Shown: positions 2,252 through 27,471 of the stretch, in pieces
How positions within the stretch are numbered: position 1 is the stretch's first letter
Layout: the number at the start of each line of letters is the position of its first letter
Assembly (NCBI GenBank): GCA_048941015.1
Contig: JBHLNZ010000037.1
Location: 1-31,134, forward strand
Direction of reading: 5' to 3'
Source of the DNA: Promethearchaeota archaeon
GTDB taxonomy: Archaea; Asgardarchaeota; Lokiarchaeia; Sigyniarchaeales; SOKP01
Length of the DNA stretch: 31,134 bases
Notes under the pieces: generated by a model
What the model was told of the DNA's origin: nothing
Seen by the model: the letters and a program-made list of their open reading frames with translations, nothing else
The model's database searches: none
Translations under genes and position numbers: made by a program

Positions 2252-2267
2252 ATTTTTTCTTTAAATA
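2252..2267 (+). promoter_or_regulatory. T-rich-BRE/TATA element ATTTTTTCTTTAAATA upstream of the radA paralog
   Basis: Identical 16-mer at 10009..10024. It lies in a divergent intergenic region, 72 nt before the ATG. Confidence 0.55.
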
Positions 2268-2339
2268 TTACTATAAAATCAGAAGATCAATCTTAATTAT
2301 AATTAAAAGAGATGATAAGAAAAAATTTCAGATTTAGAT

Positions 2340-3551
2340 ATGGTAAAAAATATCAATGCCCGACAAATCAAACTTCTTCAGGAAAACGGAATTAGTACCG
2401 CGGAAGCATTAGCAATGTCTCCTGCAGCGATGGTTGCTGAAATCGATGGGTTAGGGGATAAAACTGCTAGGAAATTAATATGGAATGCTCGAAACGCCTT
2501 AGGAATGACTGAATTTATGGCAGTAAAAGATATAGACGAAAATACAGAATATATTACCACTGGCTCGGAGGAATTAAATCGAATCTTAGGAGGAGGAATA
2601 GCGACCGGTAAAATCACTGAAATTTTTGGTCCATTTAAATCAGGAAAAACGAATCTTGCACAAACTATAGCGGTAACATCTCAATTACCTAAAAGTAAGG
2701 GAGGTCTTGGCGCTTCAGTTGCCTATATCGACACTGAAAATACTTTTTCCAAAGATAAGATAAAGCGCATTGCAAAAAGATTTGGAATTGATGAGAAGAA
2801 AGCACTGTCTCAAATTTATCATGCTAGAATTTACTCTTCTGACCACCAATCCCAAATGATTGCCAAGGCAGAAGGTTTATGTAAAACTAGAGGAATAAGA
2901 TTAATAATTGTAGATAGTTTAATGGCTTTGATGAGAGCGGAATATGTAGGAATTGGTATGTTAGCCCGACGTCAAAGTGTGCTTAATAACATGATTCATG
3001 CTCTATCTCGAATAGCAGAAACTTATAATTGTGCAGTTTTGGTTACCAACCAAGTTGCTACTAAAATGGTCGGAATGTTTTCTGCGGATGATGCAATCGG
3101 AGGAAATATTGTTGCTCACGGTTGTCATTTTAGAGTTATGTTTAAGACTAAGGGTTTCTCATCTAATAATTCTTTAAAAAGGAGAGCTATAATTGTCGAT
3201 GCTCCTGATCTTCCGCCAAATGAATGTGAATTCTTCATTACAGCATCGGGAATTGCTGATACTGAACAATCAGAAATGCCAAAAAACGATGAAATCGATT
3301 TTAAAGTAGAGTCCTTATTTGAAGATTCTAATGCTGATTCTAAACCTAAAGAAACTTCTGAAGAAGTAGAAATAACGCAAGTGAAAGGAATTGGGAAAGG
3401 TATCGCAGATAATCTGAAGGAACATGGAATAAATTCTATTGAAGATTTGATTGATTCAAATGCTGAAGAATTAGCAACTAAAATAAGTGGAGTATCAACA
3501 AAAAAGATCATAGAATGGCAAGAACACGCAAAAGGGCTAATAACTAATTAA
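2340..3551 (+). CDS. radA: RadA/Rad51-family recombinase paralog with N-terminal HhH domain and an extra C-terminal HhH domain
   Basis: TTGSEELNRILGGG; Walker A GPFKSGKT; YIDTENTF; Walker B LIIVDS; RAEYVG..LARRQ; VTNQV; IGGNIVAH. The C-terminal VKGIGKGIADNLKEHGINSIEDL follows an acidic linker. Confidence 0.92.
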   Translation: MVKNINARQIKLLQENGISTAEALAMSPAAMVAEIDGLGDKTARKLIWNARNALGMTEFMAVKDIDENTEYITTGSEELNRILGGGIATGKITEIFGPFKSGKTNLAQTIAVTSQLPKSKGGLGASVAYIDTENTFSKDKIKRIAKRFGIDEKKALSQIYHARIYSSDHQSQMIAKAEGLCKTRGIRLIIVDSLMALMRAEYVGIGMLARRQSVLNNMIHALSRIAETYNCAVLVTNQVATKMVGMFSADDAIGGNIVAHGCHFRVMFKTKGFSSNNSLKRRAIIVDAPDLPPNECEFFITASGIADTEQSEMPKNDEIDFKVESLFEDSNADSKPKETSEEVEITQVKGIGKGIADNLKEHGINSIEDLIDSNAEELATKISGVSTKKIIEWQEHAKGLITN

Positions 3552-3640
3552 TTTTTTTTTCCTATTTTTCAACAGATTTTTTTAAATTTAAAGAAAGACT
3601 TTCTATAGGATTTTAAGGTAAAATTTAAGAAAAACAATCA

Positions 3641-4729
3641 TTATAACGTTGGGGGAGGTATAAAAACTCTTCTCATCTCTGTTTTTTTCAAACTGATAGC
3701 ACTTTCGGGGCATAAATGAGCACAAACACCACAGCCGATACATCGTTCATTATCAACAGCTGCAACAGTGTCTATGAGATCAACAGCTTCAGCGGCACAA
3801 TGCTGTACACACGTTCCACATCCAGTGCACAATTCTTCATCAACATGAGCTAAGTGTGAAGTTAAATCCATTAAAGGTATTCCACCGGTATAATGAAGGG
3901 TAAAAACGCCACAACAGCATTTGCAGCAATTACAAATACCATCAATATCTCTCTCTATATCTAAATTGGCGTGAAAAACCTTATGAACCAAGCCTTCATC
4001 TTCAGCTTTTTTCATTATTTGTTTAGCTTCATCCTTTGAAATTTTTTCTACAAAACCGTGGGATATAAGAAATTCGGCTGTTCTTCCCAAGGCAATACAA
4101 TTTCTCCTTTCATTTGTTGTTTCACATGGTTCATCAAGAAGATCTTTTTTGTGTCTGCAATAACAAACAGCCACTCCAATAGGATCGTACTTTTCAATGA
4201 TTTTTGAGACCTCTTCCAAGGGTAGAACAATCTCTTCCTTTAATTTAACTTCTTCTTCAACAGGAATGACCCTATCAATTGATGGGGCATCCTTCCATTC
4301 TTGAACCATTTGGTTATAATTTGTTTGAGTATCTTGAACAATCTGGTTATATAATTTCACAAATAAACTTGCTAAGTTTTTTGTTTCTTCGTTTGTCTCA
4401 CCACGCATTAAAGTAAATTCAATGATTCCTGGAACTAAGGGTGTTTTTCTGTAAACCATAACACCAGTACTTTTGCTGGGTATGCCAGAAATAACACCAA
4501 TATTCATTAGATCATTTAACATCTTATTAAGCTCTTCTTCATCCATATCAGTTAAAGGTTTAATTTGATCAAGATTATATGAATGTTTTTTGAGTAAAGT
4601 GATAAATTTAGCTTGTTCTTCAGTTAGTAAAGTTTGCATTATTTCAATTACTATTTCACTTGCTCGTATTGGTAACCTTCCCGCTTTTATAAAATTTCTA
4701 GCCACCTTATACCATAATTTTTCTGACAT
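3641..4729 (-). CDS. 4Fe-4S dicluster-binding protein with N-terminal wHTH-like region
   Basis: CYCRH, CNCCKCCC and two ferredoxin motifs, CTGCGTCVQHC and CIGCGVCAHLCP. Confidence 0.9.
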   Translation of the reverse strand: MSEKLWYKVARNFIKAGRLPIRASEIVIEIMQTLLTEEQAKFITLLKKHSYNLDQIKPLTDMDEEELNKMLNDLMNIGVISGIPSKSTGVMVYRKTPLVPGIIEFTLMRGETNEETKNLASLFVKLYNQIVQDTQTNYNQMVQEWKDAPSIDRVIPVEEEVKLKEEIVLPLEEVSKIIEKYDPIGVAVCYCRHKKDLLDEPCETTNERRNCIALGRTAEFLISHGFVEKISKDEAKQIMKKAEDEGLVHKVFHANLDIERDIDGICNCCKCCCGVFTLHYTGGIPLMDLTSHLAHVDEELCTGCGTCVQHCAAEAVDLIDTVAAVDNERCIGCGVCAHLCPESAISLKKTEMRRVFIPPPTL

Positions 4730-4862
4730 TTTTAATCAATTTTCAAATTTGGATATTTAATATTTTATTTGATATATGATATTTACTTTAATAGAATAAA
4801 AATATTTTAAAATTCTTTTTTTGCTAATTAAAAAAGAACAAAAAAATTTTATTTAATATCAA

Positions 4863-5831
4863 TCATACATTTTTCCGTTTCCTTGTCATTGTAAGCAGTA
4901 TCAAGGTTCCAATGAAAACACCAGCAATAATGACCATGCCTGTCATCATTTCCGAGGGAAGTGAAAAGAATTGGGTAAAATTCGTATCGTTATCCGAAGG
5001 AGAGCCGCTATTATTTGTTGGATCGGAAATTCGATAATCCCAGCAAATAGCATATCCAATGTTAACTGCATCAATATTGCAAGAAATTGTGATGTTTAAA
5101 ACATATACTCCTGACTTAGCAGTACCGAAATTAAAAAAAATTAATTCATTAATTGTAGGCAAAGTCGTATTAAAGTAAATTTTAAATTGGATATCATTAG
5201 GTTCATAGATAAAGTAATCTAAACTTACTTCGCTGTCATCTAAAACTGAGATGGAAGAGACTCTTCCAATGTAGCAGCGATATGATACATCGGTATCGAA
5301 ATTAATATAATAAGAGAATGATGTTTCATCAGAAAAACGAGCGATACGATAAAATACTTCTCTATTAAAGAGCTGAGAAGGAATTTTATCTGTAAGACAT
5401 TGCTCTCCTTTCTCTAATCGGATATAGATATTAAGATTATTTATGCTTATAACGTTAAATCTAATTGCATAGATACCTTGTAATGCAGTTCCAAAAGGAA
5501 TTTCATGCCAATCACCTTGAGTGAGAACCGCATGAAAGATGTTGTATCTCATCGTATCAGGATCCCATAAGCTAATATTCAAAGTGCAATTGTGGGGAGA
5601 TACCACTTCTATCCAAAAGTAATAAGTAAAATCTTTTTCCATAAATATTTCGGGAAAAACTAACTCATCTTCGGGACTCAAGAAGGTATATACTTTATCA
5701 ATTAGCGTGGGATTGTCAAACTCAAATAGAGAACCGTTGATAGTTGGTAATTTATAAAATGAGATCAACAGAGTCCCGAACAGAAGAACTATGATAAGAC
5801 TTATTATTGACTTCTTTATTTTAATAACCAT
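4863..5831 (-). CDS. Type I membrane surface protein with two tandem beta-sandwich (GOLD/PPC-like) repeats
   Basis: N-terminal hydrophobic signal; repeated DP/EP...FGTAxxGxY motif; S/D/N-rich linker; C-terminal TM + RKRKNV. Overlaps the upstream Zn-ribbon gene by 11 nt. Confidence 0.7.
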   Translation of the reverse strand: MVIKIKKSIISLIIVLLFGTLLISFYKLPTINGSLFEFDNPTLIDKVYTFLSPEDELVFPEIFMEKDFTYYFWIEVVSPHNCTLNISLWDPDTMRYNIFHAVLTQGDWHEIPFGTALQGIYAIRFNVISINNLNIYIRLEKGEQCLTDKIPSQLFNREVFYRIARFSDETSFSYYINFDTDVSYRCYIGRVSSISVLDDSEVSLDYFIYEPNDIQFKIYFNTTLPTINELIFFNFGTAKSGVYVLNITISCNIDAVNIGYAICWDYRISDPTNNSGSPSDNDTNFTQFFSLPSEMMTGMVIIAGVFIGTLILLTMTRKRKNV

Positions 5832-6138
5832 ACACCTTCATATTCTTAAACTCATTGGTAAGTTCCTGTACTAATTCGCATTTATCATATGCAATACAAC
5901 TAAAGCAAGGTTGATCTGACCAGAAATATGGTTTCTGGTGAGGTTTTTCTATAATAAGTAAAGGGAAGGATGTCTTAGGGCATGTAAGTGCTGAATTTAT
6001 GATTTTTCCCCTTTTAGGAAGTGGATATGATGTTTCACAAACATCACATTTTACAAATCTCTTGTAATTATTTGTTTTGTACACAATAAGCGAACATTCA
6101 CAATTGGGACAGATCCCAATCTCATCTATTTGTTTCAT
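5821..6138 (-). CDS. Stand-alone topoisomerase IA C-terminal-type Zn-ribbon protein
   Basis: GICPNCECSLIVYKTNNYKRFVKCDVCETSYPLPKRGKI...CP...PCFSC matches the pattern of archaeal TopA C-terminal Zn ribbons (CPxC...KRFVGC...YPLPxxGKI). Confidence 0.7.
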   Translation of the reverse strand: MKQIDEIGICPNCECSLIVYKTNNYKRFVKCDVCETSYPLPKRGKIINSALTCPKTSFPLLIIEKPHQKPYFWSDQPCFSCIAYDKCELVQELTNEFKNMKVYGY

Positions 6139-6187
6139 TTATCAGGACGCCTAATACTATAATTTTATAGTAAGTTTCTCTTGATCA

Positions 6188-6203
6188 TTTATAAAAAAAA
6201 AAA
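6188..6203 (-). promoter_or_regulatory. T-rich-BRE/TATA element (TTTTTTTTTTTATAAA) for the Zn-ribbon/surface-protein operon
   Basis: Reverse complement of tttataaaaaaaaaaa; 49 nt before the ATG at 6138; divergent intergenic region. Confidence 0.5.
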
Positions 6204-6307
6204 TAAAATTCTCTTGCATTTATTGAAAAATTAATAAATGGGGTATGGGTTTCAATTTAATAGACCTTAAATTTTATAGATCAAGACTCCTATAAACTAT
6301 AATTTTT

Positions 6308-6346
6308 AAGAGAGGAGAGAAGAGTTAACTTCTAACCTCTCTTTTT
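6308..6346 (+). other. Imperfect inverted repeat (hairpin) followed by a T-run in a divergent intergenic region
   Basis: AAGAGAGG(6308-6315)/CCTCTCTT(6336-6343) and AGAAG(6318-6322)/CTTCT(6329-6333), 6-nt loop, then TTT. Confidence 0.6.
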
Positions 6347-6360
6347 GATTAATCTAGTTA

Positions 6361-6376
6361 ATTTTTTGTTTATAAA
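6361..6376 (+). promoter_or_regulatory. T-rich-BRE/TATA element ATTTTTTGTTTATAAA (leaderless-type spacing)
   Basis: 24 nt before ATG 6401. Confidence 0.6.
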
Positions 6377-6400
6377 TATCTATTTTATTCTAAATCCATT

Positions 6401-6625
6401 ATGGCAATTTTTAGTTATTTATCCAGTATGGTGAGTGCTGTCGAATTTCTTATAGCTTTAGGATCAGTTATTGGATTATTAGGTTTGCTTGTGGGATTAA
6501 TATTTCTCATCTGGGGTTCTCCAAGAATGCGTGGTAAAATGGTTGGAGTGATTATTATTTCGATTATATTATTAGCATTATGTGGAGTTAATACAGGGAT
6601 GAAATATTTTAGAGTTTATAGATAA
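6401..6625 (+). CDS. Small two-TM membrane protein, possibly VirB2/TrbC/CedA1-type pilin-like
   Basis: 74 aa; two hydrophobic helices separated by a short basic loop (GSPRMRGK). The pilin call rests on architecture only. Confidence 0.55.
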   Translation: MAIFSYLSSMVSAVEFLIALGSVIGLLGLLVGLIFLIWGSPRMRGKMVGVIIISIILLALCGVNTGMKYFRVYR

Positions 6626-6726
6626 ACAATATTTTTAGTAAAACATGCGCCATAAAACAAATTTTAACTGTTAATAAGATTATTAGAACTATTTTAAATC
6701 AAGATTTCTTTTATTTTAGTACTTGT

Positions 6727-7092
6727 TTAAATATATCCTTTTGAAGGCTTATTCCCTCCAAGGATCATTCCCATAAAATCATAAGTTATATCAGTAAGAA
6801 AACATCCAATCCATAGCAAAAGTACTCCAAAAAAAATTGCACCAATTGAAATTTTTTTTGAGATTAATACTTTGATTATTGCGTAAGCGATTAAAAGTGG
6901 ACCAAAAGTAAGACAGATTGTCCCAATATAATTAAACACTAACTTGAGCACAATATTTGTCTGATAACGCAAATTTGCTCCAAAGAACGGTACATAAATA
7001 GCTATAAATAGCAAAATTCCAGTAAAAATCCACATAACTTTACTATGACTCCTTTCTTTTCCGATTACTATAACATTTTCATTTTTTGCCAT
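6727..7092 (-). CDS. Three-TM hypothetical membrane protein
   Basis: 121 aa with three hydrophobic segments. Confidence 0.75.
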   Translation of the reverse strand: MAKNENVIVIGKERSHSKVMWIFTGILLFIAIYVPFFGANLRYQTNIVLKLVFNYIGTICLTFGPLLIAYAIIKVLISKKISIGAIFFGVLLLWIGCFLTDITYDFMGMILGGNKPSKGYI

Positions 7093-7135
7093 AATTAATT
7101 ACTTTTTTCAATTTAGTATGTTAAATTTCCGTCTC

Positions 7136-7171
7136 TTTATAAAAAAAAAATACTCATTTTTTCTTTAAAAA
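7136..7171. promoter_or_regulatory. Back-to-back pair of T-rich-BRE/TATA elements (7136..7151 on minus; 7156..7171 on plus)
   Basis: Minus: ATTTTTTTTTTATAAA, 43 nt before ATG 7092. Plus: ATTTTTTCTTTAAAAA, 21 nt before ATG 7193 and identical to 12442..12457. Confidence 0.65.
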
Positions 7172-7192
7172 TTTATATCCTTCACAAGAGTT

Positions 7193-8284
7193 ATGGGAGT
7201 TAAACTTCAAAACATTATAATTAGAAAAAAAATCGAATTTTCAGATTTAAGGGGGAAAATTATTACTGTTGATGCTCCAAACATCATAATGGGTTTATTT
7301 AACTTCGCACGAAGAGACATTGGACAGAATAGTAAAGGTTTAATTTTAGATAAAACACAACGTCCAATTTCTCATCTCTACGGGTTATTTTATAGAATAA
7401 ACTTTTATTATTCGAAGATGATAATTCCTATTTTTGTGTTTGATGGTGTTGATTCTGAGTTAAAAAAACTCAAAACGAAAGACAGGCTTCACGATTTTCT
7501 TTTTACTCAGATTTGGTATCAAGAGGCTATAAGATCAGGGAATAATCAATTAGCACGAAGTATTGCTTTAAGTAAAGAATATATGTGGAGAAATATTATT
7601 TCCGAATCAAAAGCACTTCTTGGGGCATTAGGTGTACCATATATTGAATCTCCCGCTTCAGCAGAATCCCAATGCGCCTATTTAGTAAGAGATAAAATAG
7701 CTAATTATTCTAATTCCCAGGATTTTGACTCGCTACTTTTTGGTTGCCCTAGATTGCTCCAAAATCTTTCTAAATCATTAAAAAGAAAAATAAAAGGACG
7801 TTGGACCTATTATAAAATCGATCCTTTAACAATAAATCTTAAAAAAAACTTAGAACTGCTTAATATTAATCAGTTTCAGTTAGTTGATATAGCTATACTA
7901 ATAGGAACAGATTATTTTCCAGGAATCAAAGGTATAGGGTCTAAAACTGCCTTAAAACTGATATTAAAACATCATTCCTTAGAAAATATATTGTATCAGG
8001 AGAAAAATAAATACAATTTTGAAGAATTAACTCCTGATCTCATAAAAGAAGTACGAAAAATCTTTCTACTTCCCGAAGTAATCAGAAAATATAGTGAAAT
8101 CTTTTGGAATCATCCAAATGAAGCCTTAGTATACCATTTATTATGTGAAGAACATAATCTTAACCGAGAACGTATTAAGAATAATATGGATAAGTTTATA
8201 AATAATTATGAACGATGCGTACAATATTTTAAATTTAAAAAGGATAAACCAACTCTTTTACAAAAATCATTATTATCGTTTTAA
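7193..8284 (+). CDS. fen: Flap endonuclease-1 (FEN1/XPG family) paralog with C-terminal PIP box
   Basis: MGVKL, VDAPN, PIFVFDG, AESQCA, SQDFDSLLFG, GTDYFPGIKGIGSKTA (H3TH); C-terminal QKSLLSF PCNA-interaction motif. Confidence 0.92.
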   Translation: MGVKLQNIIIRKKIEFSDLRGKIITVDAPNIIMGLFNFARRDIGQNSKGLILDKTQRPISHLYGLFYRINFYYSKMIIPIFVFDGVDSELKKLKTKDRLHDFLFTQIWYQEAIRSGNNQLARSIALSKEYMWRNIISESKALLGALGVPYIESPASAESQCAYLVRDKIANYSNSQDFDSLLFGCPRLLQNLSKSLKRKIKGRWTYYKIDPLTINLKKNLELLNINQFQLVDIAILIGTDYFPGIKGIGSKTALKLILKHHSLENILYQEKNKYNFEELTPDLIKEVRKIFLLPEVIRKYSEIFWNHPNEALVYHLLCEEHNLNRERIKNNMDKFINNYERCVQYFKFKKDKPTLLQKSLLSF

Positions 8285-8295
8285 GTAATTACTAG

Positions 8296-8311
8296 AATTT
8301 TCTTTTAAATA
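8296..8311 (+). promoter_or_regulatory. Degenerate T-rich-BRE/TATA element AATTTTCTTTTAAATA
   Basis: 54 nt before ATG 8366. It could also be the fen terminator T-tract. Confidence 0.35.
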
Positions 8312-8365
8312 TTTCAAGTTTATTCCCAAAACAATTCTTATTTATAATATTAAGATGACAATAAA

Positions 8366-8968
8366 ATGGCAGATAATTCAAATATACATTCTGAGGAGTA
8401 TATGATTCCATTTCTTATTGAACAAGAATTTACTACCAAATACAACGTACTTAATTATGTAGTACGACATATGTCTTTTGTAAATCATCAGGAAAAAATT
8501 GTTACTATACCTCAAGAAAAATTAAGAATGGTATCAAAAAATACTCATATTCCTAATTGCATAGTTAATAAAGTTGTAAGAGGCTTTTTGATAAACGTGC
8601 TTCTTTTTCGAGATCATATGAGTGCTTATAAATTTTCGTGGAGTCATGGAGTCAAAGTTCAATTAAGTAAAGTTTGTGTATATTTAGAACGTCTATATAA
8701 TATGGCACCGGTATTTGATTTTACAAGGGCAAAGAAAAATTTAGAGATATTATATAAACTTCTTGAACTAAATTGTTATTGGCCTTGTCTGACTACACAA
8801 CTCGCTTTAGTTATATTTGTGACAGATCGAAACGATTCACAAAATTATGAGTTTATTACTCAGAAAAATTTGCGAGCGATTTGTGCTAATTCCGCGTATG
8901 CGTTTCATAGAGCACGAAATAAATTAGGGATTAATAATAATGGACGGATAAGTCGATTAATACAGTAA
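8366..8968 (+). CDS. Hypothetical protein with a C-terminal TFB/TFIIB cyclin-repeat-like domain
   Basis: VYLERL...AKKNLEIL...QLALVIFV...ITQKNLRAICANSAYAFHRARNKL parallels the TFB second repeat (YVPRF...AIEIL...AAAAIYIA...[24 protein letters not shown]). No N-terminal Zn ribbon. Confidence 0.5.
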   Translation: MADNSNIHSEEYMIPFLIEQEFTTKYNVLNYVVRHMSFVNHQEKIVTIPQEKLRMVSKNTHIPNCIVNKVVRGFLINVLLFRDHMSAYKFSWSHGVKVQLSKVCVYLERLYNMAPVFDFTRAKKNLEILYKLLELNCYWPCLTTQLALVIFVTDRNDSQNYEFITQKNLRAICANSAYAFHRARNKLGINNNGRISRLIQ

Positions 8969-9018
8969 ACTTCTCATTTAAAACGCATATAATTACATCT
9001 TTAATTTTAATTGGCGAG

Positions 9019-9034
9019 ATTTTTTATTTATAAA
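9019..9034 (+). promoter_or_regulatory. T-rich-BRE/TATA element ATTTTTTATTTATAAA (leaderless-type spacing)
   Basis: 23 nt before ATG 9058. Confidence 0.6.
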
Positions 9035-9057
9035 AAAGTGCAAAATAGTTTTATTTA

Positions 9058-9990
9058 ATGATTACTGATTTAGATGATATTTTCCAAAAATTATTAGAAA
9101 AAGGGCTAACTGAAGAGGAAATTGAACGCCAAATACACAAAAAATCTCGGCAGTATGATGGGTTCATGTCGAAACAGGGAATTCTCTTTATTATTGCCAA
9201 AGAAAACGGTATTAAGCTCTATTCTCCCGAAATTGACCCTGAAATCTACAAAGAAATCGAAAAAGAGATTGATTATGATGAGTTCACCATCTCTATCTCC
9301 AATGTACAAGAAGGGATGCAAAATATTGTTATCTTAGGTAAAATAATATCCATTTTTCAGAAGCGTGAATTTGTAAGAAAAGATGGATCAGTAGGGCAGG
9401 TTGGCTCATTTATCGTAGCTGATACATCTGGAACAATTAAAGTAGTGATATGGGATGATAAAGTTGAAATGATGAATAATGAATATTTTAAAGAAGGAGA
9501 AATCATCCGAATTATTGGCGGATATTCTAAGATGGGAGAAGACAATTCGCTTGAAGTTCACCTCAGGCGAAATGGAAATCTCCATATCTCTCCAAATGAT
9601 ATAACCCAAAAATTAAGAATTCAATTGGAATCGGTCAGATGTTCTGAAAATTACCATCTTAATTTAAAAAAAGGGGTAGCAAAAAATATTCATGATTTGG
9701 TAGATAAATATGAATTTATTAGGAGTATTCAGGGTATTGTAAAAATAGAAGATTTTAAAGAATTGACTACTAAAAGTGGAGAAAAGACATTTCTTCTTAA
9801 ATTGATATTAAGCGATGATTCTGCGTCCGTTTATGTAGTAGTATGGGGGATGATTGCGATTGAATGTCTGAAATTAATAAATGAGGGAGATTCAGTCTGT
9901 ATTACTAACTTAAAGGTACAGAGAAATACGTTTAATAATGAAAAAGAGCTAATATTTACTAAGAAATCTTCTTTGCAGATTATAGGTTAG
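9058..9990 (+). CDS. Replication protein A-like ssDNA-binding protein (two OB folds, helical N-terminal domain)
   Basis: ISNVQEGMQNIVILGKI...EFVRKDGSVGQV...ADTSGTIKVVIWD and a second OB, LSDDSASVYVVVWG. Confidence 0.88.
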   Translation: MITDLDDIFQKLLEKGLTEEEIERQIHKKSRQYDGFMSKQGILFIIAKENGIKLYSPEIDPEIYKEIEKEIDYDEFTISISNVQEGMQNIVILGKIISIFQKREFVRKDGSVGQVGSFIVADTSGTIKVVIWDDKVEMMNNEYFKEGEIIRIIGGYSKMGEDNSLEVHLRRNGNLHISPNDITQKLRIQLESVRCSENYHLNLKKGVAKNIHDLVDKYEFIRSIQGIVKIEDFKELTTKSGEKTFLLKLILSDDSASVYVVVWGMIAIECLKLINEGDSVCITNLKVQRNTFNNEKELIFTKKSSLQIIG

Positions 9991-10008
9991 CCATATAAGT
10001 TAATATAA

Positions 10009-10024
10009 ATTTTTTCTTTAAATA
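10009..10024 (+). promoter_or_regulatory. T-rich-BRE/TATA element ATTTTTTCTTTAAATA for the roadblock/MglA-like operon
   Basis: Identical to 2252..2267; 48 nt before ATG 10073. Confidence 0.55.
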
Positions 10025-10072
10025 GTCCTAGTAAATTAGCATTCTAATCATTATAAAAGGTTAATACTTAAC

Positions 10073-10606
10073 ATGACAATATATGTGCCAAAAGCATTGT
10101 ATGAAAATGAGATTTCAGAAGTGCTAGATGAAATCCGACATTCTTACGGAATTCTTACTAGAAAAGGATTTATCTACGGGTTAATTGCGATTGATCAAGA
10201 TGCTAAAATTATCGCCATAGACTCTCGTTTTGACCGAAAGTTAAATTATTGGGATTTAAGTTCTATCGGAGCTGCGATGTATGGAGTGGCACGCCAAGCT
10301 CAAGATTTTTTTGACACTCAATCCTTAATACGTGCTACTTTAATTTTTAAAGACTTACAGTTATTTGTAAAATCAATAGGGCAAGTTAATCTAAAGCGAA
10401 AAGGAGATCGAGAAATTTTGGTAATACTTCTAGTGAATAATGAAGTCAATATAGGAGTTCTTATACTCCAGATGAATAAGTTTTCCGAAAAAATTAGAGA
10501 AGCAATAAAACGCAACAACGAAATTATGTCCAAGTTAGAAATGACTGAAACAGAATTAAAAGAACATATTAAAAATCTCAAGAGAAAAGTATTTGGATCT
10601 GCTTAA
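10073..10606 (+). CDS. Roadblock/LC7 (MglB-like) domain protein with C-terminal helical extension
   Basis: Pattern GLIAIDQDAKII...LSSIGAAMYG...LVILLVNNEVNIGVL; directly upstream of an MglA-like GTPase. Confidence 0.75.
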   Translation: MTIYVPKALYENEISEVLDEIRHSYGILTRKGFIYGLIAIDQDAKIIAIDSRFDRKLNYWDLSSIGAAMYGVARQAQDFFDTQSLIRATLIFKDLQLFVKSIGQVNLKRKGDREILVILLVNNEVNIGVLILQMNKFSEKIREAIKRNNEIMSKLEMTETELKEHIKNLKRKVFGSA

Positions 10607-10624
10607 TTTTAGGTGATTCATAAA

Positions 10625-11284
10625 ATGGCAGAATCAAATAGAAAAGGAGAGAGTTGCCCGTCTTTAAGTAGTAAATCTAATCAAGGTAAAATGAAAGGAG
10701 TGCTTCAATTTAAGATTGTATATTGGGGTCCCGGTGAATCGGGGAAGACTACGAATTACTTTCGGCTTAGGGAGAAATTTGATGGAGTAAAATTGAATGC
10801 AGGATACTCTATTGAAACTACAGATGGCCGCACTTTATGGCAAGATTCAGTTCGGCTTTCATTTTTTCTTAATCTCGGAGATATTAAGTATAATATCATT
10901 TCTCAAATAGTAACGGCAACGGGACAAGAACGTTTTTTATCTACCAGAGAATATGTTTTGGATGGAGCGGATGGAGTGGTTTTTGTTGCTGACTCGGATC
11001 CTGAAAAGATGGAACAAAACAAACGCAGCTTTCGAGAATTGATTAGTTTTACAAAACCTAATAAGATTCCTTATTTGGTGCAGTTAAACAAACGAGATTT
11101 AAAAAACGCCATCTCTATTGAAGAATTTAAAAAACAGTTAAATCTCCCTGATTTTGAAGAATATGAAGATGGAACCCTTGTAGTCTATTCTTCGGTAGCT
11201 TTGAAGGGCGAGAATATACGAGAATGTTTTGAAGATCTTATGCTTCATGTAATTTTTAATTATTTTAAGAAGGATTTCATTTAA
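10625..11284 (+). CDS. MglA-like small GTPase (likely start ATG 10625 after AGGTGA; the ORF track starts at 10613)
   Basis: KIVYWGPGESGKTTN (G1), TTDGRTL (G2 with the MglA-type Arg), TATGQ (G3), DGVVFVADS, NKRD (G4). Confidence 0.88.
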   Translation: MAESNRKGESCPSLSSKSNQGKMKGVLQFKIVYWGPGESGKTTNYFRLREKFDGVKLNAGYSIETTDGRTLWQDSVRLSFFLNLGDIKYNIISQIVTATGQERFLSTREYVLDGADGVVFVADSDPEKMEQNKRSFRELISFTKPNKIPYLVQLNKRDLKNAISIEEFKKQLNLPDFEEYEDGTLVVYSSVALKGENIRECFEDLMLHVIFNYFKKDFI

Positions 11285-11315
11285 TACATATTTTCTTATA
11301 AGTTTAGATAATTTA

Positions 11316-12434
11316 ATGGGGCTGTTAGATTTGGATACAGAATATGACTTTATTCAGCCGGAATTTTTAAACATTCTTTTTTTTCAGCAAATGAATTTAA
11401 TCATATTTCCTTATATAGATTTGAAACATCTTCATTCCTTACAGATTTTTACTATTGGATATGATATCATTGATATCGATGCTACAGCAATCCATAACTT
11501 ACAGGAAATTGTTGATTATGAAAAATGCAGTTCTTATTCTCAGCAACCTACCCTTTACTTTTTATATAATGTTGATGTATTAAATCTAAAAAAACTAATT
11601 ACTTCCAATAATGTTCGCTACATTGTAAACATTAATGAAGATGTGGATAATTTAGTAAATGACTCTGATGCCATATTTTTTAACAAAAAAAGCAAGAAGT
11701 TTATCAATTATACTCCTGATAATCTAGAATTTGAAACTTATCTTATTGAAAACTCCAATAGCGAAACTGTTCTTCTGGAAAAAATTCAGCAGATTAAAAC
11801 ATTAGCGACTAAAATATATTCCGAAATAAACGAAAAAGGACATCTAAAGGAATTATCTACTATTTTAAAAGAATATGATCCGTGTTATTGGAATAAGATC
11901 TTATCATTTACTAAAAAATATTATGATATTGAACTCCCTGAGGTTAGTATTCCAGAATCAGGTAAAAAAATTGCCCATAAGAAGGAATTGAAGGATTTTT
12001 CTGCAGAATATGAATTGATTATAAAAAGCAATCGACATATTGCTCAAGAATTTGTTCAATTAATTCATGAATATCGTAGTAAATATGTAAATTCTGCTAA
12101 CTTAGAAGTTGATCAATTATATTATCCTCTAAAACTCTATAATTATCTGCGAAACCACCACTGGAAAAAGGGTATTCATTCCAGCTTTTTGAAAGAATGG
12201 CTTAAAATGAAGCATACTAGTTATGTGCTTAATGAAAATGACAAAGCTGATTTTAAAACTCTTCTTCAGAAGTTAAATAGTAATAATATTGATTTCGAAA
12301 AAATACAAGCTCAACCAAATTCGGAAAATAGTCAATTGCTTAATATTAACAGCAAAAATCCAATACCTTCTATTAAAGATTTCCAAGAATTTAAAAAATG
12401 GATATTGAAGAAATTAGATCACCTTGCAAAATAA
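11316..12434 (+). CDS. Hypothetical protein; the N-terminus weakly resembles a degenerate AAA+/clamp-loader-like fold
   Basis: Long 372-aa ORF. GYDIIDIDAT / PTLYFLYNVD / RYIVNIN are spaced like RFC motifs, but there is no Walker A. Confidence 0.6.
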   Translation: MGLLDLDTEYDFIQPEFLNILFFQQMNLIIFPYIDLKHLHSLQIFTIGYDIIDIDATAIHNLQEIVDYEKCSSYSQQPTLYFLYNVDVLNLKKLITSNNVRYIVNINEDVDNLVNDSDAIFFNKKSKKFINYTPDNLEFETYLIENSNSETVLLEKIQQIKTLATKIYSEINEKGHLKELSTILKEYDPCYWNKILSFTKKYYDIELPEVSIPESGKKIAHKKELKDFSAEYELIIKSNRHIAQEFVQLIHEYRSKYVNSANLEVDQLYYPLKLYNYLRNHHWKKGIHSSFLKEWLKMKHTSYVLNENDKADFKTLLQKLNSNNIDFEKIQAQPNSENSQLLNINSKNPIPSIKDFQEFKKWILKKLDHLAK

Positions 12435-12441
12435 ATTGTAT

Positions 12442-12457
12442 ATTTTTTCTTTAAAAA
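12442..12457 (+). promoter_or_regulatory. T-rich-BRE/TATA element ATTTTTTCTTTAAAAA (leaderless-type spacing)
   Basis: Identical to 7156..7171; 21 nt before ATG 12479. Confidence 0.6.
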
Positions 12458-12478
12458 TACCTGAATAATAAGATAACC

Positions 12479-12865
12479 ATGATTTCAAAACAAGTAATGG
12501 ATAGGAAAGGAAAGGTACCTGAAATTCGATGTATTATATGTAATAATGAGACAAAACAAAAACCTCAAATTATCCAGTTAGGTGTAGAATTTTGCATCAT
12601 ATGTCCAGAATGTATCAAAAGGTTTCCCCGAAAGGATATGGAATTCATGTATAATATGTTTTCAGCATTTGGTGGGTATTTCGGACAAGTTAAAGATACC
12701 AAAAGGTCAATGTATGAGATTTTCAAACATTTGACTAAAGAATTTAATATCCAAGAAGAAAGAATTACTCTTAAAAGTGATATTCGCCTACTGCATAAAG
12801 CATTCTTATATGGAATCCCTCCCAGTCAAATATTACAAGGATATCATTTAGTACAAAAGGTTTAA
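12479..12865 (+). CDS. C4 zinc-finger protein with GGYFG...HKAFLYG helical domain
   Basis: CIIC...CPEC; the C-terminal part is homologous to ORF 3..227. Confidence 0.75.
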   Translation: MISKQVMDRKGKVPEIRCIICNNETKQKPQIIQLGVEFCIICPECIKRFPRKDMEFMYNMFSAFGGYFGQVKDTKRSMYEIFKHLTKEFNIQEERITLKSDIRLLHKAFLYGIPPSQILQGYHLVQKV

Positions 12866-12909
12866 TATTTTTAGGAGTTTAAATGGATTGATTAAGATTA
12901 AGGGGTATA

Positions 12910-13122
12910 ATGAATGTTATACAACATAGTTATTGCCCCCGTTGTCAAACTTATTTAGTATATACAACCGAGAACAAGATTTTATGTCCCTCCTGCCGAC
13001 TTACGTTTAATAAAGATGTATTCGGTGCATTAAATGACGAGAATATTCTTTCGGATCAGGAAATTAGCGGGATACTTGATTCTTTAAAAAAAGGAAGAAA
13101 TATACAAAAACTAAAAATTTAA
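12910..13122 (+). CDS. Small Zn-ribbon protein (TFB N-terminal Zn-ribbon-like)
   Basis: CPRCQTYLVYTTENKILCPSCRLTF; GGGGT ribosome-binding-like sequence just upstream. Confidence 0.65.
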   Translation: MNVIQHSYCPRCQTYLVYTTENKILCPSCRLTFNKDVFGALNDENILSDQEISGILDSLKKGRNIQKLKI

Positions 13123-13202
13123 TTATATTCTTTCTCTTCTTTTTTAGATCTTCACATCATTTATAATAGTTTAATTAAACTATATTATTTTATATTATAA
13201 AA

Positions 13203-13952
13203 TTAGAAATGGACATTATGTTTTTCTAAAATCCAAGTATCTATAGAAAATTCTTGAATTCCCTTTTTTTCTATTTTATAATCAGAATGAATTGTTGATC
13301 GAGGTAGCCATAACTCAAGATTATTTTCAAACATAATTAGTAATGCTTTATCAGAACTTCCCATAATACTTCCTTTGATTTGTATTGATTTTTTATTAAT
13401 AGCTTTCTTTTTATCTGATTTTTCAACAACTTGTTTAATTTTTTGGTGTTTTTCTGGTACTTCAATAATCTCTTCCCTAATCATCAAATTGTCAGAATTT
13501 TCCTCTTTCAAAATTTTACTGTTTTCACCATCAGGAGGTCTAAAATTGGAGCCAGTTGCATATTCAATCTTTTCAGCTAGCATATGCTCCATCAACATTC
13601 GAAAAATAATAATTTGAGCCGTTTGAAATGATTTCTTATAATCCCCAATATTAACATAGATTTGCTCTTTTTTGCTATCATCCCATTTGAAGTTAATTGC
13701 AGTTTTATCTTCCTTAAAGGAATGATAAGTTGTCCATGAGTCCGATTCTTTAGACAAAACTTGAAGAATTAATGCCATCTCTTCTAAGGAAAACTTAATT
13801 GTTTTCCCCTCCCCTTGAGATGGTTTTTCCCATACTCCATCTTTTTTTTTTCGTAAACAGGTAAAAAAGATAAAATCATCCTGTTTGGAAGAACTTTTGA
13901 TTATAATACCGGTTTTTTGTCCGAAAAAGCTTCTAGAGTGAAAATCTACCAT
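13203..13952 (-). CDS. Putative Whirly/PC4-fold ssDNA-binding protein with a C-terminal small beta-barrel domain
   Basis: N-terminal beta-beta-beta-beta-alpha pattern (FIFFTCLRKKKDGVWEKPSQGEGKTIKFSLEEMALIL) apparently repeated; charged linker; C-terminal SDKALLI...LWLPRSTI...IDTWILEK domain. Confidence 0.5.
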   Translation of the reverse strand: MVDFHSRSFFGQKTGIIIKSSSKQDDFIFFTCLRKKKDGVWEKPSQGEGKTIKFSLEEMALILQVLSKESDSWTTYHSFKEDKTAINFKWDDSKKEQIYVNIGDYKKSFQTAQIIIFRMLMEHMLAEKIEYATGSNFRPPDGENSKILKEENSDNLMIREEIIEVPEKHQKIKQVVEKSDKKKAINKKSIQIKGSIMGSSDKALLIMFENNLELWLPRSTIHSDYKIEKKGIQEFSIDTWILEKHNVHF

Positions 13953-13999
13953 AATAATATCAAATGATCTTTAATTTTAAAATAAAGAGAGGCTAGTTA

Positions 14000-14015
14000 T
14001 TTATAAATAAAAATA
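14000..14015 (-). promoter_or_regulatory. T-rich-BRE/TATA element TATTTTTATTTATAAA
   Basis: 47 nt before ATG 13952; divergent intergenic region. Confidence 0.5.
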
Positions 14016-24225: not shown

Positions 24226-25299
24226 TTATAATAGTTTTGAGGATTTCTTTAGTTTCATTCTTATAAGGATTACGGCAACTGATAGAATTCCAATCAGCAT
24301 GAATAAATTAAATCCGGGAATTCTTCCACCATTTTGAGTGGTTGGGATTGGGCAAATCATTAATGGAAAATTATCTTGACTTCCTGCGGGACCAGCAATA
24401 TTATAGGGAATGTCTCCGACTCCATTATTGTCTGAATCTGAACCTGTATAATCATCCCAATAGTTGCCTATTGTTCCATTATCCCATTTATTATTTAAAG
24501 CACCATCATTAGCATGGACTCCATTATCCGTAAAACAATTAAGATATACCTCATTATTTCCGGAAGGGCCTCCCTTAAATTCTATGCCAAGAGTATTTTT
24601 ACTTATGATATTTCTCGTAATATTGTTATATCGAACAAACGACCATGTTTGTATCCCAATTTGATTGGAAATTAAGGTGTTTCCCGTAATATTGTTATTT
24701 TCAGCACCCCCTACATGTAAAACTATTCCCGTTAAATAATTATATTCAATACTATTTCCCGAAATGGTGTTATTATCACCATCATTTAAAAGTATCCCGC
24801 AATAGTCGTTATGGTCTACGATGTTTCCCGAGATCGTGTTATTATGACTGGCATACAAGCTTATTCCGCTATAATTAGGAGAACAAACATTATCAGTTAC
24901 CTGTCCATTATTCGTGTTGTTAAGTTTAATACCTGCTGCAGGATAATCTCCCGAGTTGTAGAGGTTACATTTTTCAATCCTAAAGTACACGGTGGAATTT
25001 TCAATCAAGATACAGCTTCCCGATCCCCCTCCATCTATTTCCAAATCTTCTATAATATAAGGTTCGGAATAAGTACCATTTCCAGTACATATTCCCGCAT
25101 CTTTAGCAACAGACCAATTCATAGTTGGATTAGTATCATCGATGTGAATTGGTGATACAGCTGAGATTTTCAAATTTCCATTATCTGAACAAAATTCTGA
25201 ATTATTTAAGCTGAGATTAATGCTAATTATTGATGAAAAAGCAAAAAAAATTCCTAAAATTATTAGAACAACTATTTTTATTTTTCGATTTGATTTCAT
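24226..25299 (-). CDS. Secreted right-handed parallel beta-helix (NosD/CASH) protein with Loki-CTERM-like anchor
   Basis: GNGTYSEPYIIEDLEID, repeated NNTISGN, GNYWDDY...GDIPY, IPGF + TM + Lys tail. Confidence 0.9.
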   Translation of the reverse strand: MKSNRKIKIVVLIILGIFFAFSSIISINLSLNNSEFCSDNGNLKISAVSPIHIDDTNPTMNWSVAKDAGICTGNGTYSEPYIIEDLEIDGGGSGSCILIENSTVYFRIEKCNLYNSGDYPAAGIKLNNTNNGQVTDNVCSPNYSGISLYASHNNTISGNIVDHNDYCGILLNDGDNNTISGNSIEYNYLTGIVLHVGGAENNNITGNTLISNQIGIQTWSFVRYNNITRNIISKNTLGIEFKGGPSGNNEVYLNCFTDNGVHANDGALNNKWDNGTIGNYWDDYTGSDSDNNGVGDIPYNIAGPAGSQDNFPLMICPIPTTQNGGRIPGFNLFMLIGILSVAVILIRMKLKKSSKLL

Positions 25300-25360
25300 T
25301 TTGAGTTCATCAGAATCTTATTTCGTTATATATATAAAAAGATGTTTGTAAAATTTATTT
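25277..25360. repeat. Repeat A copy 1 (84 bp: start of nosD-like gene plus 5' leader)
   Basis: Matches 27449..27532 with one mismatch. Confidence 0.9.
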
Positions 25361-25472
25361 AAATATTTTTTATCGTTCAACTAGCAAAAATAAGTTTTTA
25401 CTAGTAAAAATGTATTTTTGACTGTGAATTTTTCACTTTATTTTTTAGTTAAAAAAAATAAAAAGAAGTATT
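25355..25472. repeat. Repeat B copy 1 (118 bp promoter/upstream region)
   Basis: Matches 28686..28803 with three mismatches. Confidence 0.9.
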
Positions 25473-26250: not shown

Positions 26251-27471
26251 TTAAGATTTCTTTACTCTTTTGCTTATATAGATTGTTAGAATAGATAGAA
26301 TGCCAAATAGAATGAAGAGATTATATCCTGGAATTATTCCACCATCTTGAGCTGAAATTGGACATGTCATTAATGGAAAGTTATCTTGGCTTCCTGCAGA
26401 TCCACTAATATTGTATGGAACATCACCGATTCCATTGCCATCTGCGTCTGAACCGGGATAATCGGCCCAGTAATTTCCCTTAATTCCATTATCCCAATTA
26501 TTGTACGAACCATCATCCTTCGCATTGAATACGTTATCAAAACAATTTAGATATATATTGTTAAAGAAAGATGAACCCAAACTTATCCCAGCATTGATTG
26601 TATCCCCATTTTGAGTAACAATGTTTTCTGTAAAATTGTTATAATCGCTACCAGATACGGTTATTCCCCATCTGATGTTATTTTCCACAATGTTTCCAGA
26701 AATTATGTTATTATCAGCTATAAGAATAGCAATCCCAGCATTATTATTATTATTTACAATGTTTTCAGAGACCACATTATTATCAGAATCATCTATTGAT
26801 ATCCCATAGAAGCCGTTATCACATCTGTTTCCCATAATGGTATTATTATAAGAATCCCTTACCAAGAGCGTATATTCATTATGATCATTATTAATAACGG
26901 TGTTTCCTGATACTATGTTATTATGACTATCACCTAATCCTATTTCCGTAAAATTATTATTTCTTACATTGTTTCTCGAAATTTCATTATAGGTACAATT
27001 CCACAATGTTATCCCATTACCACTATTATTTAAAACTTCATTGTCTTTTAATAATCCATTAGTAACTGAATCTAGCCTAATACCAACACCTGGCCAAACC
27101 CCCGAATTATAAACCTTACAATTCGCTATTTTAAAATATACATTAGAATTTTCAATCCAGATACAACTTCCTGAATGTCCGCCATCTATCTCCAAATCTT
27201 GTATGACGTAGGGGTTGGAGAAAATGCCTTGCCCCGTACAATTTCCCGCTGCTCGAAAGGCAGCCCAACCTGAATTATTGGTGATATGAATTTTTCCCGA
27301 TACCGCTGAGATTTTTAATTTATTATAGTCGAATTCGTCGTTGTTGTTGTTCGAAATTATATCTCGATCTCTATCCATGAATCTTGAAATATTGATAAAA
27401 ATAGGTGAAAAAGTAAAAAGGATTCCTAATGTTATTAAAATTACTGTATTTATTTTTCGATTTGATTTCAT
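26251..27471 (-). CDS. Secreted NosD/CASH beta-helix protein with Loki-CTERM-like anchor (paralog of 24226..25299); true start ATG 27471
   Basis: The MKSNRKI start is identical to the paralog. The ORF-track extension to 27540 is just the shared leader. Confidence 0.9.
   Translation of the reverse strand: MKSNRKINTVILITLGILFTFSPIFINISRFMDRDRDIISNNNNDEFDYNKLKISAVSGKIHITNNSGWAAFRAAGNCTGQGIFSNPYVIQDLEIDGGHSGSCIWIENSNVYFKIANCKVYNSGVWPGVGIRLDSVTNGLLKDNEVLNNSGNGITLWNCTYNEISRNNVRNNNFTEIGLGDSHNNIVSGNTVINNDHNEYTLLVRDSYNNTIMGNRCDNGFYGISIDDSDNNVVSENIVNNNNNAGIAILIADNNIISGNIVENNIRWGITVSGSDYNNFTENIVTQNGDTINAGISLGSSFFNNIYLNCFDNVFNAKDDGSYNNWDNGIKGNYWADYPGSDADGNGIGDVPYNISGSAGSQDNFPLMTCPISAQDGGIIPGYNLFILFGILSILTIYISKRVKKS

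Follow-up and report, generated by a model that had tools for sequence, protein, structure and literature searches.

What kind of signal precedes ten of the genes in the window, by which we mean the whole contig of 31,134 nucleotides (C88) of an Asgard archaeal genome (G000), and which factor reads it? At each site a TATA box (TTTAWAWA, 10/10 sites) is preceded, across one spacer base, by 5-6 T's on the sense strand, and this T-run occupies the position of the A-rich BRE of archaeal promoters, the element that TFB reads through its second cyclin fold and C-terminal helix-turn-helix (PMC7289017, PMC4581349). The ten sites are best explained as the core promoters that serve the transcription units of a ~40-kb accessory island, and this island is probably run by a private, sigma-factor-like switch, since the island of related genomes encodes its own, heavily altered TFB. 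The sites are as follows, with gaps measured from the TATA box to the start codon.

2252..2267, + strand: T-run promoter, A-T6-C-TTTAAATA; gap of 72 nt to the ATG of the radA paralogue; identical 16-mer at 10009
6188..6203, − strand: T-run promoter, T11-ATAAA; gap of 49 nt to the ATG of 5821-6138
6361..6376, + strand: T-run promoter, A-T6-G-TTTATAAA; gap of 24 nt to the ATG of 6401-6625; leaderless spacing
7136..7151, − strand: T-run promoter; gap of 43 nt to the ATG of 6727-7092; back to back with 7156
7156..7171, + strand: T-run promoter; gap of 21 nt to the ATG of the FEN1/XPG paralogue; identical 16-mer at 12442
8296..8311, + strand: degenerate T-run promoter, AATTTTC-TTTTAAATA (T4-C-T4AAATA); gap of 54 nt to the ATG of 8366-8968
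9019..9034, + strand: T-run promoter; gap of 23 nt to the ATG of the OB-fold RPA-like gene 9058-9990
10009..10024, + strand: T-run promoter; gap of 48 nt to the operon 10073-12434
12442..12457, + strand: T-run promoter; gap of 21 nt to 12479-12865, followed by the Zn-ribbon gene 12910-13122
14000..14015, − strand: T-run promoter, T5-A-TTTATAAA; gap of 47 nt to the ATG of 13203-13952; within C88 the island ends here on the right

Coordinates, strands and gaps all match those of the preliminary description, and the two pairs of exact 16-mers to which it had drawn attention are real. The orientation and the spacing of the T-run relative to the TATA box are fixed. The gaps to the ATG fall into two groups, one of 21-28 nt, which is of the leaderless type, and one of ~42-72 nt; four of the ten sites do lie at the 21-24 nt claimed for them (the distance to the transcription start being taken here from the leaderless spacing), and the gap is kept in the orthologues. 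Among 46 sites pooled from G000 and two relatives (G016 and G002), T is found at the unanchored positions −6 and −7 in 44 and 35 cases, respectively, while the spacer base is C in 22; with T at positions −7 to −2 in nearly all sites, the element is not an A/purine-rich BRE. No second conserved element was seen beside the T-run. The genes at 2135, 14304 and 18710 and the ferredoxin-domain gene have the purine-rich promoters originally ascribed to them.

The genes and operons of the window that bear on the argument are these.

2340..3551, + strand: RadA/Rad51 paralogue that carries an additional HhH domain at its C-terminus (Pfam Rad51, 6e-70)
3641..4729, − strand: gene of a wHTH + 4Fe-4S protein, with its own canonical A-rich BRE/TATA promoter
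4863..6138, − strand: two-gene operon in which a 105-aa protein overlaps a 322-aa membrane-anchored protein; orthologues in G016 and G141
7193..8284, + strand: FEN1/XPG paralogue, 37% identical to the canonical FEN1 (G000:C3:201-1196)
9058-9990, + strand: OB-fold RPA-like gene, behind T-run promoter 9019
10073-12434, + strand: operon of a 177-aa protein, an Arf/Ras-like small GTPase and a 372-aa protein, behind T-run promoter 10009

The gene at 2340..3551 does not encode the canonical RadA: among the other Rad51-domain genes of G016, even the best is only ~42% identical to it. The FEN1/XPG paralogue has a T-run promoter with a gap of 21-25 nt in five genomes (G000 and four others), despite diverged flanks. 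The 322-aa protein (4863-5831) is TFB-sized and was considered as a possible TFB, but it is membrane-anchored and has no match in Pfam or the PDB.

The motif is strongly concentrated. Allowing at most one mismatch, the pattern occurs 11 times in the window against an expectation of 1.30 ± 1.21 from 100 dinucleotide shuffles, none of which attained 11 matches. The exact 16-mer pattern occurs 24 times in the whole genome of 3.59 Mb, with 7 of these occurrences in the 31 kb of C88. When a position weight matrix was applied with a score of at least 17, no more than 100 nt upstream of an ORF on the same strand, there were 12 hits, six in C88 and six in a second contig, C43. T6-N-TTTAWAWA is found 10-90 nt upstream of 14 of the 31 island genes versus 2 of the 3044 others (Fisher p 4e-28), a set of genes which was first noticed through the motif, and which was delimited independently by synteny with G016 and G141; A4-N(1-2)-TTTAWAWA, by comparison, is found upstream of none of the 31 island genes versus 65 of the 3044 others. 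Of the checks proposed in the preliminary description, the genome-wide one shows enrichment, and that of conservation shows the T-run motif kept with the island upstream of the orthologues in relatives. Overall these counts support a promoter-like class of sites limited to one gene set. The canonical promoters of G000 are harder to define de novo: a TATA-seeded ZOOPS-EM search wandered off to a weak motif, the base profile aligned on the ATG shows nothing but an SD signal, and the sequences upstream of 16 tRNA genes vary among themselves. We therefore relied on pattern counts and on an oriented k-mer analysis, in which upstream regions elsewhere in G000 show a sense-strand bias to A/purine-rich words.

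The preliminary description had called this promoter class cluster-specific, which is too narrow: the class belongs to an island of ~40 kb, of which the C88 cluster (2.2-14.0 kb) is only half, the other half being on C43 (0.4-21.6 kb), where at least nine further T-run sites extend the same class over ~21 kb. The two parts, split in G000, form a single block of ~40 kb in G016, G002 and G141. In C88 an SBP gene at 267-2135 may mark a rearrangement. Synteny between G016 and C88 stops at site 14000, and in G016 no T-run motif was found outside the island, whether in the ~25 kb before its left border or in the ~12 kb past its right one. The island contains RadA, FEN1, RPA and Hel308 paralogues together with a membrane complex, and many of its proteins have no family assignment; no integrase or virion gene was detected with Pfam among the genes of C88 and C43 and ten further island genes of G016. 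A 1240-aa protein that we use as the island marker is present in 100 of the 135 genomes of the family, in 1-3 copies (three in G008). The flanks of the island differ between G000 and G016, its distribution is patchy, and its copy number and location are variable.

In the three relatives inspected (G016, G002, G141) a gene midway along the island codes for a TFB of very divergent sequence, hereafter iTFB; in G141 this gene is at C49:11429-12649. Aligned by hhalign with the seven canonical TFBs of G000, among them that at C15:21272-22207, iTFB matches with 98.4% probability (E 9e-15), the 258 aligned columns reaching from the Zn ribbon to the C-terminal HTH; it has an N-terminal Zn ribbon with conserved CxxC...CxxC, two cyclin repeats and an HTH, while the Pfam models TFIIB and Zn_Ribbon_TF score 13-21 bits, all below the gathering threshold. 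The recognition helix reads I-x-MSTI-x-x-QVE, versus VTEVT-x-R-x-R in the seven host TFBs, so that, of T, E, T, R and R, the invariant residues of the canonical helix, most are replaced and the second T alone is retained. In all three relatives the gene for iTFB has itself a purine-rich BRE/TATA promoter, whereas most of the neighbouring island units have T-run promoters; on the G141 contig it is the sole unit with a promoter of the purine-rich type.

The candidate factor and its putative target set are co-inherited. iTFB was found in 98 of the 135 family genomes, in more than 40 of them on the same contig as the 1240-aa marker, at a distance of 2.5-26 kb, and in G008, which has three copies of the island, every copy carries an iTFB. 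Both iTFB and marker are present in 85 genomes, iTFB only in 13, the marker only in 15 and neither in 22, which corresponds to an odds ratio of 9.6 among genomes that, as kin, are not independent; the imperfect agreement can be explained by the fragmentation of MAGs. The preliminary description had supposed that canonical TFB would bind a T-rich BRE poorly, and that these promoters would stay silent until a specialised factor acts on them. The relatives' island does encode a divergent TFB with a rewritten BRE-reading helix, but neither tblastn nor a genome search gave a match in the G000 assembly, and for G000 the factor is therefore presumed. Because C43 begins inside the gene that neighbours iTFB (C43:1-192 is the tail of that gene), the segment of G000 expected to hold iTFB and four small neighbouring genes is probably unassembled, or else it was lost; an exact-match scan of the metagenome contigs with C43:63-106 found nothing of the missing segment.

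In the arrangement that we propose, the T-run would be an alternative BRE, read by the diverged TFB paralogue of the island. Host TFB would make iTFB from its normal A-rich BRE/TATA promoter, and iTFB would then switch on some 15-20 T-run promoters of the island, in a two-step cascade working like an alternative sigma factor. A TFB with a rewritten BRE-reading helix, whose own gene is under a canonical promoter, is as such a cascade predicts, and on balance we lean towards the view that the island promoters are read by iTFB in this way. More tentatively, and with somewhat less conviction, the island may be seen as a portable, orthogonal transcription unit, which would carry its own TFB and a matching 'anti-BRE', would insulate some 35 DNA-handling genes from the seven TFBs of the host, and would fire only when the island factor is made; these genes include the RadA/FEN/RPA/Hel308 paralogues, a giant HerA/VirB4-like membrane complex and a small GTPase pair. 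Helix and element also differ together in a homologous island of another family (G036), where the helix of iTFB is ITASTVYSH and the element is T-run-GC-TTTTATAAA, a covariation that rests on two lineages. The island of G033 has a T-rich element, and no TFB-like gene was seen in the 60 kb examined there.

The same sites could in principle be served by canonical TFB and TBP, with the T-run acting either as the operator of a regulator other than TFB, or through DNA structure, with rigid poly(dA:dT), DNA shape or histone exclusion setting the strength of the promoter. Poly(dA:dT) tracts exclude nucleosomes, and among the products of the island are several small Zn-ribbon and HTH-like proteins; archaeal regulators, moreover, commonly bind at or next to the BRE/TATA (PMC12993045). 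We consider this reading unlikely, while granting it real weight, as the strict strand polarity, the one-base spacer with its preference for C, and the exact replacement of the BRE all favour contact with a basal factor, and a matching island TFB exists.

If a TFB is the reader, it might also be a chromosomal one. G000 does encode, in the assembly as it stands, a divergent TFB of 341 aa (dTFB, C64:5382-6407), which is full length, with a Zn ribbon and both cyclin repeats, scores 28 bits with Pfam TFIIB, above the cut-off, and is matched by the TFB HMM built here with E 9e-22. Its helix (AEYSIRDHY) is unlike that of all seven canonical paralogues and identical in 14 congeners, and its association with the island marker in the family is appreciable (both 85, dTFB only 17, marker only 15, neither 18; odds ratio 6). 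However, dTFB is a core gene, with conserved synteny beside the 16S rRNA gene and Orc1/Cdc6 that includes closed genomes of another family, and in those genomes the helix is identical, yet T-run/TATA sites are neither enriched nor clustered; islands in that dTFB-bearing family use other elements. Furthermore, dTFB occurs without the island in the nearly complete genomes G051, G059 and G061, while dTFB is missing from G014 and G055, which have the island, and from the closed genome G082, whose island is truncated. Because it has the synteny of a core gene, carries the same helix where the motif is lacking and occurs without the island, dTFB was demoted as the leading reader, and we now regard this role for it as quite improbable.

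Archaeal RNA polymerase terminates at T-runs, and the sites could therefore be oligo-T terminators or insulators of upstream transcription that abut TATA boxes by coincidence. Site 12442, which lies 8 nt past the stop codon of a co-directional gene, would fit, and because of this position it may double as the terminator of that gene. As a general account this is very improbable: six of the ten sites lie, as first noted, in divergent intergenic regions and have no co-directional upstream gene, the distance from T-run to TATA box is fixed to one base, and the signature is confined to the island, while terminators are required throughout the genome. Lastly, although the genome has 29% G+C and contains TTTAWAWA 7516 times, the notion that AT-rich intergenic DNA produced the pattern by chance is already refuted by the counts, being contradicted by the shuffles, the genome-wide numbers, the orientation and the conservation in islands of other species.

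The proposed reading of the T-run by iTFB can be placed among known systems. With the canonical archaeal core promoter of BRE and TATA box, exemplified by the TFBc-TBP-DNA complex of P. woesei (1AIS/1D3U), the island sites share the TATA box, an adjoining upstream element and a leaderless-type spacing of 21-25 nt, and iTFB shares with canonical TFB the Zn ribbon, the two cyclin folds and the C-terminal HTH. They differ in that the canonical element is A-rich, while that of the island is a sense-strand T-run, complementary in composition, with C preferred at its end, and in that the canonical helix signature T-E-x-T-x-R-x-R is mostly replaced in the candidate reader. Alternative TFB paralogues include the haloarchaeal TfbA-G, and in organisms with multiple TFBs promoter preferences have been hard to see in the sequence. 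In Sulfolobus, TFB2 serves a cell-cycle wave, with similar BREs and different spacing (bioRxiv 10.64898/2026.09.06.749720), and TFB3 serves a UV/DNA-damage regulon, lacking the DNA-reading parts and acting with TFB1 (PMC7289017). Common to all of these and the island is a TFB paralogue dedicated to a subset of genes, and the targets of TFB3, like those of the island, concern DNA recombination and exchange; the promoter differences reported there are subtle, however, whereas here the element is sharply different and the candidate factor and its targets travel on one accessory island.

With bacterial and phage alternative sigma factors (ECF, phage-encoded) the proposed scheme shares a logic in which RNA polymerase is steered to private promoters by a factor whose own gene has a housekeeping promoter and is linked to the regulon; as the molecular system here is TFB, TBP and archaeal RNA polymerase, the analogy is one of logic and not of membership. 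TFB homologues are also encoded by Asgard viruses and mobile elements (WyrdV1, 10H_0, 7H_42-like) and by rudiviruses (bioRxiv 10.1101/2021.07.29.453957), which provides a precedent for a non-core element of Asgard archaea with its own TFB homologue. The gene content of those elements is different (PCNA, primase and similar), and the same paper, in which the word 'promoter' does not occur, describes no matching promoter class (bioRxiv 10.1101/2021.07.29.453957). No relatives of iTFB were found among IMG/VR viral contigs, and we found no paper describing the T-run promoter class.

To our knowledge, archaeal and eukaryotic transcription is as a rule described as being without promoter classes of the sigma type. 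Here a glance at the position of the BRE, A-rich or T-run, separates two classes, a candidate reader can be identified, and factor and targets are linked on an island in about 100 related genomes, so that the system offers a testable case for the evolution of TFB/TFIIB specificity, as well as a handle on the regulation of an unexplored island of recombination and membrane machinery in Asgard archaea. Should the island prove to be a portable and orthogonal unit, it would provide, for the first time in archaea, an equivalent of the element-encoded sigma factor with its defined promoter. Within the C88 cluster, the wHTH + 4Fe-4S gene at 3641..4729 is an insertion, absent from the corresponding place in G141 and G016.

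Each T-run promoter consists of a run of T's, one spacer base and a TATA box (TTTAWAWA), the T's standing at the position of the A-rich BRE. The ten sites named in the preliminary description were all found in the window (the complete contig C88), on the strands and at the start-codon distances claimed; the two pairs of exact 16-mers among them were confirmed by a sequence check, and the promoters described as normal, those of the genes at 2135, 14304 and 18710 and of the ferredoxin-domain gene, are indeed A/purine-rich ahead of the TATA box. The window holds 11 occurrences of the pattern A-T6-N-TTTAWAWA with at most one mismatch, versus 1.3 expected from dinucleotide-preserving shuffles, and none of 100 shuffles attained this number.

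ORFs were called over the whole genome (assembly G000: 3.59 Mb, 144 contigs, 29% G+C), and both pattern searches and a PWM scan were run on it. C88, a contig representing 0.87% of the genome, holds seven of the 24 exact pattern matches; PWM hits scoring at least 17 and located no more than 100 nt before an ORF on their own strand number 6 on C88, 6 on C43 (the contig carrying the other half of the accessory island) and none in the rest of the genome. Of the 31 island genes, 14 have T6-N-TTTAWAWA at 10-90 nt upstream, versus 2 of the 3044 others; the ordinary type, A4-N(1-2)-TTTAWAWA, precedes none of the 31 versus 65 of the 3044. Overall, the upstream regions of G000 are biased on the sense strand toward A-rich and purine-rich words, in agreement with the description of the BRE as an A-rich element juxtaposed to the TATA box (PMC7289017). 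Taken together, the genome-wide counts and this A-rich bias of the host indicate that the T-run class is a real and oriented one, opposite to what is normal in the host. It was originally described as cluster-specific: it is confined to one gene set, but this set extends past the C88 cluster to C43 and covers the island.

In 46 sites pooled from G000 and two related genomes (G016 and G002), with T4-N-TTTAWAWA as the sole anchor, position -6 is a T in 44 and position -7 in 35; the spacer base is most often C (22 sites), followed by T (15), G (5) and A (4). No conservation was found in these sites beyond the T-run and TATA box, either upstream or downstream. The island genes on C88 and C43 are the following.

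Window 2340-3551, + strand: RadA/Rad51 paralogue with an extra C-terminal HhH domain, behind a T-run motif
Window 3641-4729, - strand: winged-helix (TrmB/TFIIE-alpha-like, weak) and 2x[4Fe-4S] protein, between the radA paralogue and a 322-aa gene
C88: FEN1/XPG paralogue, behind a T-run motif
C88: OB-fold RPA-like protein, behind a T-run motif
C88: Arf/Ras-like small GTPase coupled to a 177-aa protein, behind a T-run motif
C88: several proteins without family, behind T-run motifs
C43: Hel308-like helicase and a second helicase, with T-run promoters
C43: radical-SAM, ThiF/E1-like, GNAT and PP-loop proteins, with T-run promoters
C43: five-gene block around a 1240-aa protein, with T-run promoters

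The gene at 3641-4729 is missing from the corresponding position in G141 (the closest relative) and G016, and is a later insertion into the island, which is consistent with its canonical promoter. G015, G017 and two of the G008 island copies encode the homologue of the RadA paralogue in two separate ORFs, of about 286-295 aa and about 145-151 aa.

Homologues of genes from C43 and from C88 lie on a single contig, about 20-30 kb apart, in five relatives (G016, G002, G015, G008 and G017). In G016, T-run sites occur throughout 114.7-155 kb of contig C1, and none lies in the adjoining 25 kb or so on the left and 12 kb or so on the right. Both flanks consist of ordinary host genes that share 55-85% identity with those of G000, and the island proteins are only 25-75% identical. 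G141 has the entire island on one contig, with proteins 57-94% identical, in the order, from the GTPase pair, C88 genes to RadA, six genes absent in G000, and C43 genes. The 1240-aa protein, taken as island marker, is present in one to three copies in 100 of 135 family genomes, and at E 1e-30 in none of 19 genomes of three other families. The cluster FEN is a second paralogue, 37% identical to the canonical FEN1 (C3:201-1196), and is present in 11 of 18 sampled congeners (3-4 copies in G008). With regard to conservation upstream of orthologues, several T-run sites are kept at each of the FEN-paralogue loci of eleven other genomes, and none was found at canonical FEN1 loci. We have very little doubt that this is a real class of promoters, conserved and spanning the whole island. 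In the closed genome G082 of the same family the island is truncated to its C43-like half (C1:206474-223918, L048-L049), with Hel308 shortened to 285 aa and T-run promoters retained; its island-type TFB lies 740 kb away, adjoining another T-run site.

Besides seven canonical TFB paralogues, G000 encodes one complete TBP and a protein of 428 aa in which the TBP repeat occurs once. The recognition helix of all seven TFBs reads V/I-T-E-V/A-T-x-R-x-R (T, E, T, R and R invariant), and with this common signature none of them stands out as a reader for a pyrimidine element. Two divergent TFBs were found, iTFB and dTFB. The former, a 406-425-aa protein, is encoded mid-island in G016, G002, G141 and the homologous island of G036, a genome of another family. 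Pfam gave only sub-threshold matches to it; profile-profile comparison with the seven canonical TFBs gave 98.4% probability (E 9e-15, 258 columns, Zn ribbon to C-terminal HTH). In the three congeners G016, G002 and G141, 42-48% identical overall, its recognition helix is I-(Q/K/R)-M-S-T-I-x-x-Q-V-E, without either of the canonical invariant arginines. It occurs in 98 of the 135 family genomes, in more than 40 of them on the same contig as the marker, 2.5-26 kb apart, and each of three island copies in G008 has its own; the odds ratio for co-occurrence with the marker is 9.6, for kin that are not independent and MAGs that are fragmented. G036 departs from the congeners in its iTFB helix (ITASTVYSH) as well as in its island element (T-run-GC-TTTTATAAA); in the island of G033 the element is TTTYGA-TTTTAAATA. 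The promoter of iTFB itself in G016, G002 and G141 has an ordinary A-rich BRE/TATA, versus the T-run found before most of the other units of the island (13 of about 14 in G141, with iTFB as the exception), which is the layout expected of a cascade in which a host TFB would drive iTFB, and iTFB the island promoters. As judged from these comparisons of sequence, the best-supported mechanism, toward which we lean slightly, is that the T-run would be an alternative BRE read by the island TFB.

Alternative TFBs are known from haloarchaea and Sulfolobales (PMC7289017). Sulfolobus TFB2 differs in that its BREs are similar and only the spacing is different (bioRxiv 10.64898/2026.09.06.749720), and TFB3 works jointly with TFB1 (PMC7289017). 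Asgard viruses and MGEs encode TFB homologues, in a paper that describes no promoter class (bioRxiv 10.1101/2021.07.29.453957); full-text literature searches for a T-run BRE, or for a TFB tied to an island, in Asgard archaea turned up no paper.

The original interpretation, of promoters that would stay silent until a specialised factor acts, is supported in part. The factor gene is missing from this assembly: a genome search of G000 found no iTFB. C43:1-192 is the tail of a 762/973-aa gene, the neighbour of iTFB in G141, G016 and G002, and left of RadA on C88 there is an SBP_bac_5 gene where G141 has four small genes, so that the iTFB segment is either unassembled or was lost through rearrangement. 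An exact-match scan of metagenome contigs gave no extension of C43.

The other candidate reader of the T-run is dTFB.

G000:C64:5382-6407 (L031:5382-6407), + strand: dTFB, eighth TFB paralogue, 341 aa, with Zn ribbon, both cyclin repeats and recognition helix AEYSIRDHY

It co-occurs with the island marker (odds ratio 6), and 14 congeners, as well as three closed genomes from another family, have exactly the same helix, despite an overall identity across the two families of only 43-46%. Yet dTFB is a core gene, whose neighbours, the 16S rRNA gene, a Roadblock/small-GTPase set and Orc1/Cdc6, are kept in conserved synteny; T-run/TATA sites are neither enriched nor clustered in those three closed genomes; and nearly complete genomes have dTFB without the island, just as the island occurs without dTFB. 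In dozens of MAGs the dTFB contig begins about 5 kb upstream of the gene, where the three closed genomes have the 16S rRNA gene, and a break at the rRNA is the likely cause.

The distances from TATA box to ATG in G000 fall into two classes, 21-28 nt and about 42-72 nt, as they do in G016 and G002 with few outliers (miscalled starts and one 115-nt gap). We infer that the shorter class fits what a leaderless mRNA needs, provided that the TATA box stops about 22 nt short of the start. Five genomes keep a gap of 21-25 nt ahead of the FEN paralogue despite diverged spacer sequence, which supports the TATA part being a genuine TATA box directed at the gene. Reading the T-runs as oligo-T terminators is compatible with site 12442, 8 nt past the upstream stop codon, which may serve in both roles, but does not work at the six sites that lie between divergent genes and leaves unexplained why the T-run/TATA junction is fixed to one base. 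On the - strand of G000:C43, at L001:8640-8668, the Hel308-like ORF opens with an ATG that overlaps the TATA box of the ORF's own promoter, a T-run one, likewise in G016; translation probably begins at an ATG further downstream, on a leaderless mRNA.

A further site, T6-C-TTTATATA, lies at G000:C84:19334-19348 (+), 123 nt before a gene (C84:19472-20686) whose product is a paralogue, 30% identical, of that of the island GNAT-domain gene; a ThiF-like fragment is close by, and site and gene may have been left behind by the island or be a satellite of it. Finally, a 144-nt direct repeat of 90% identity (window 25329-25472 and 28660-28803) is located upstream of the minus-strand genes 24226-25299 and 27573-28610, and may be a common regulatory region of a paralogous gene set; genes 24226-25299 and 26251-27540 have internal repeated segments in common.
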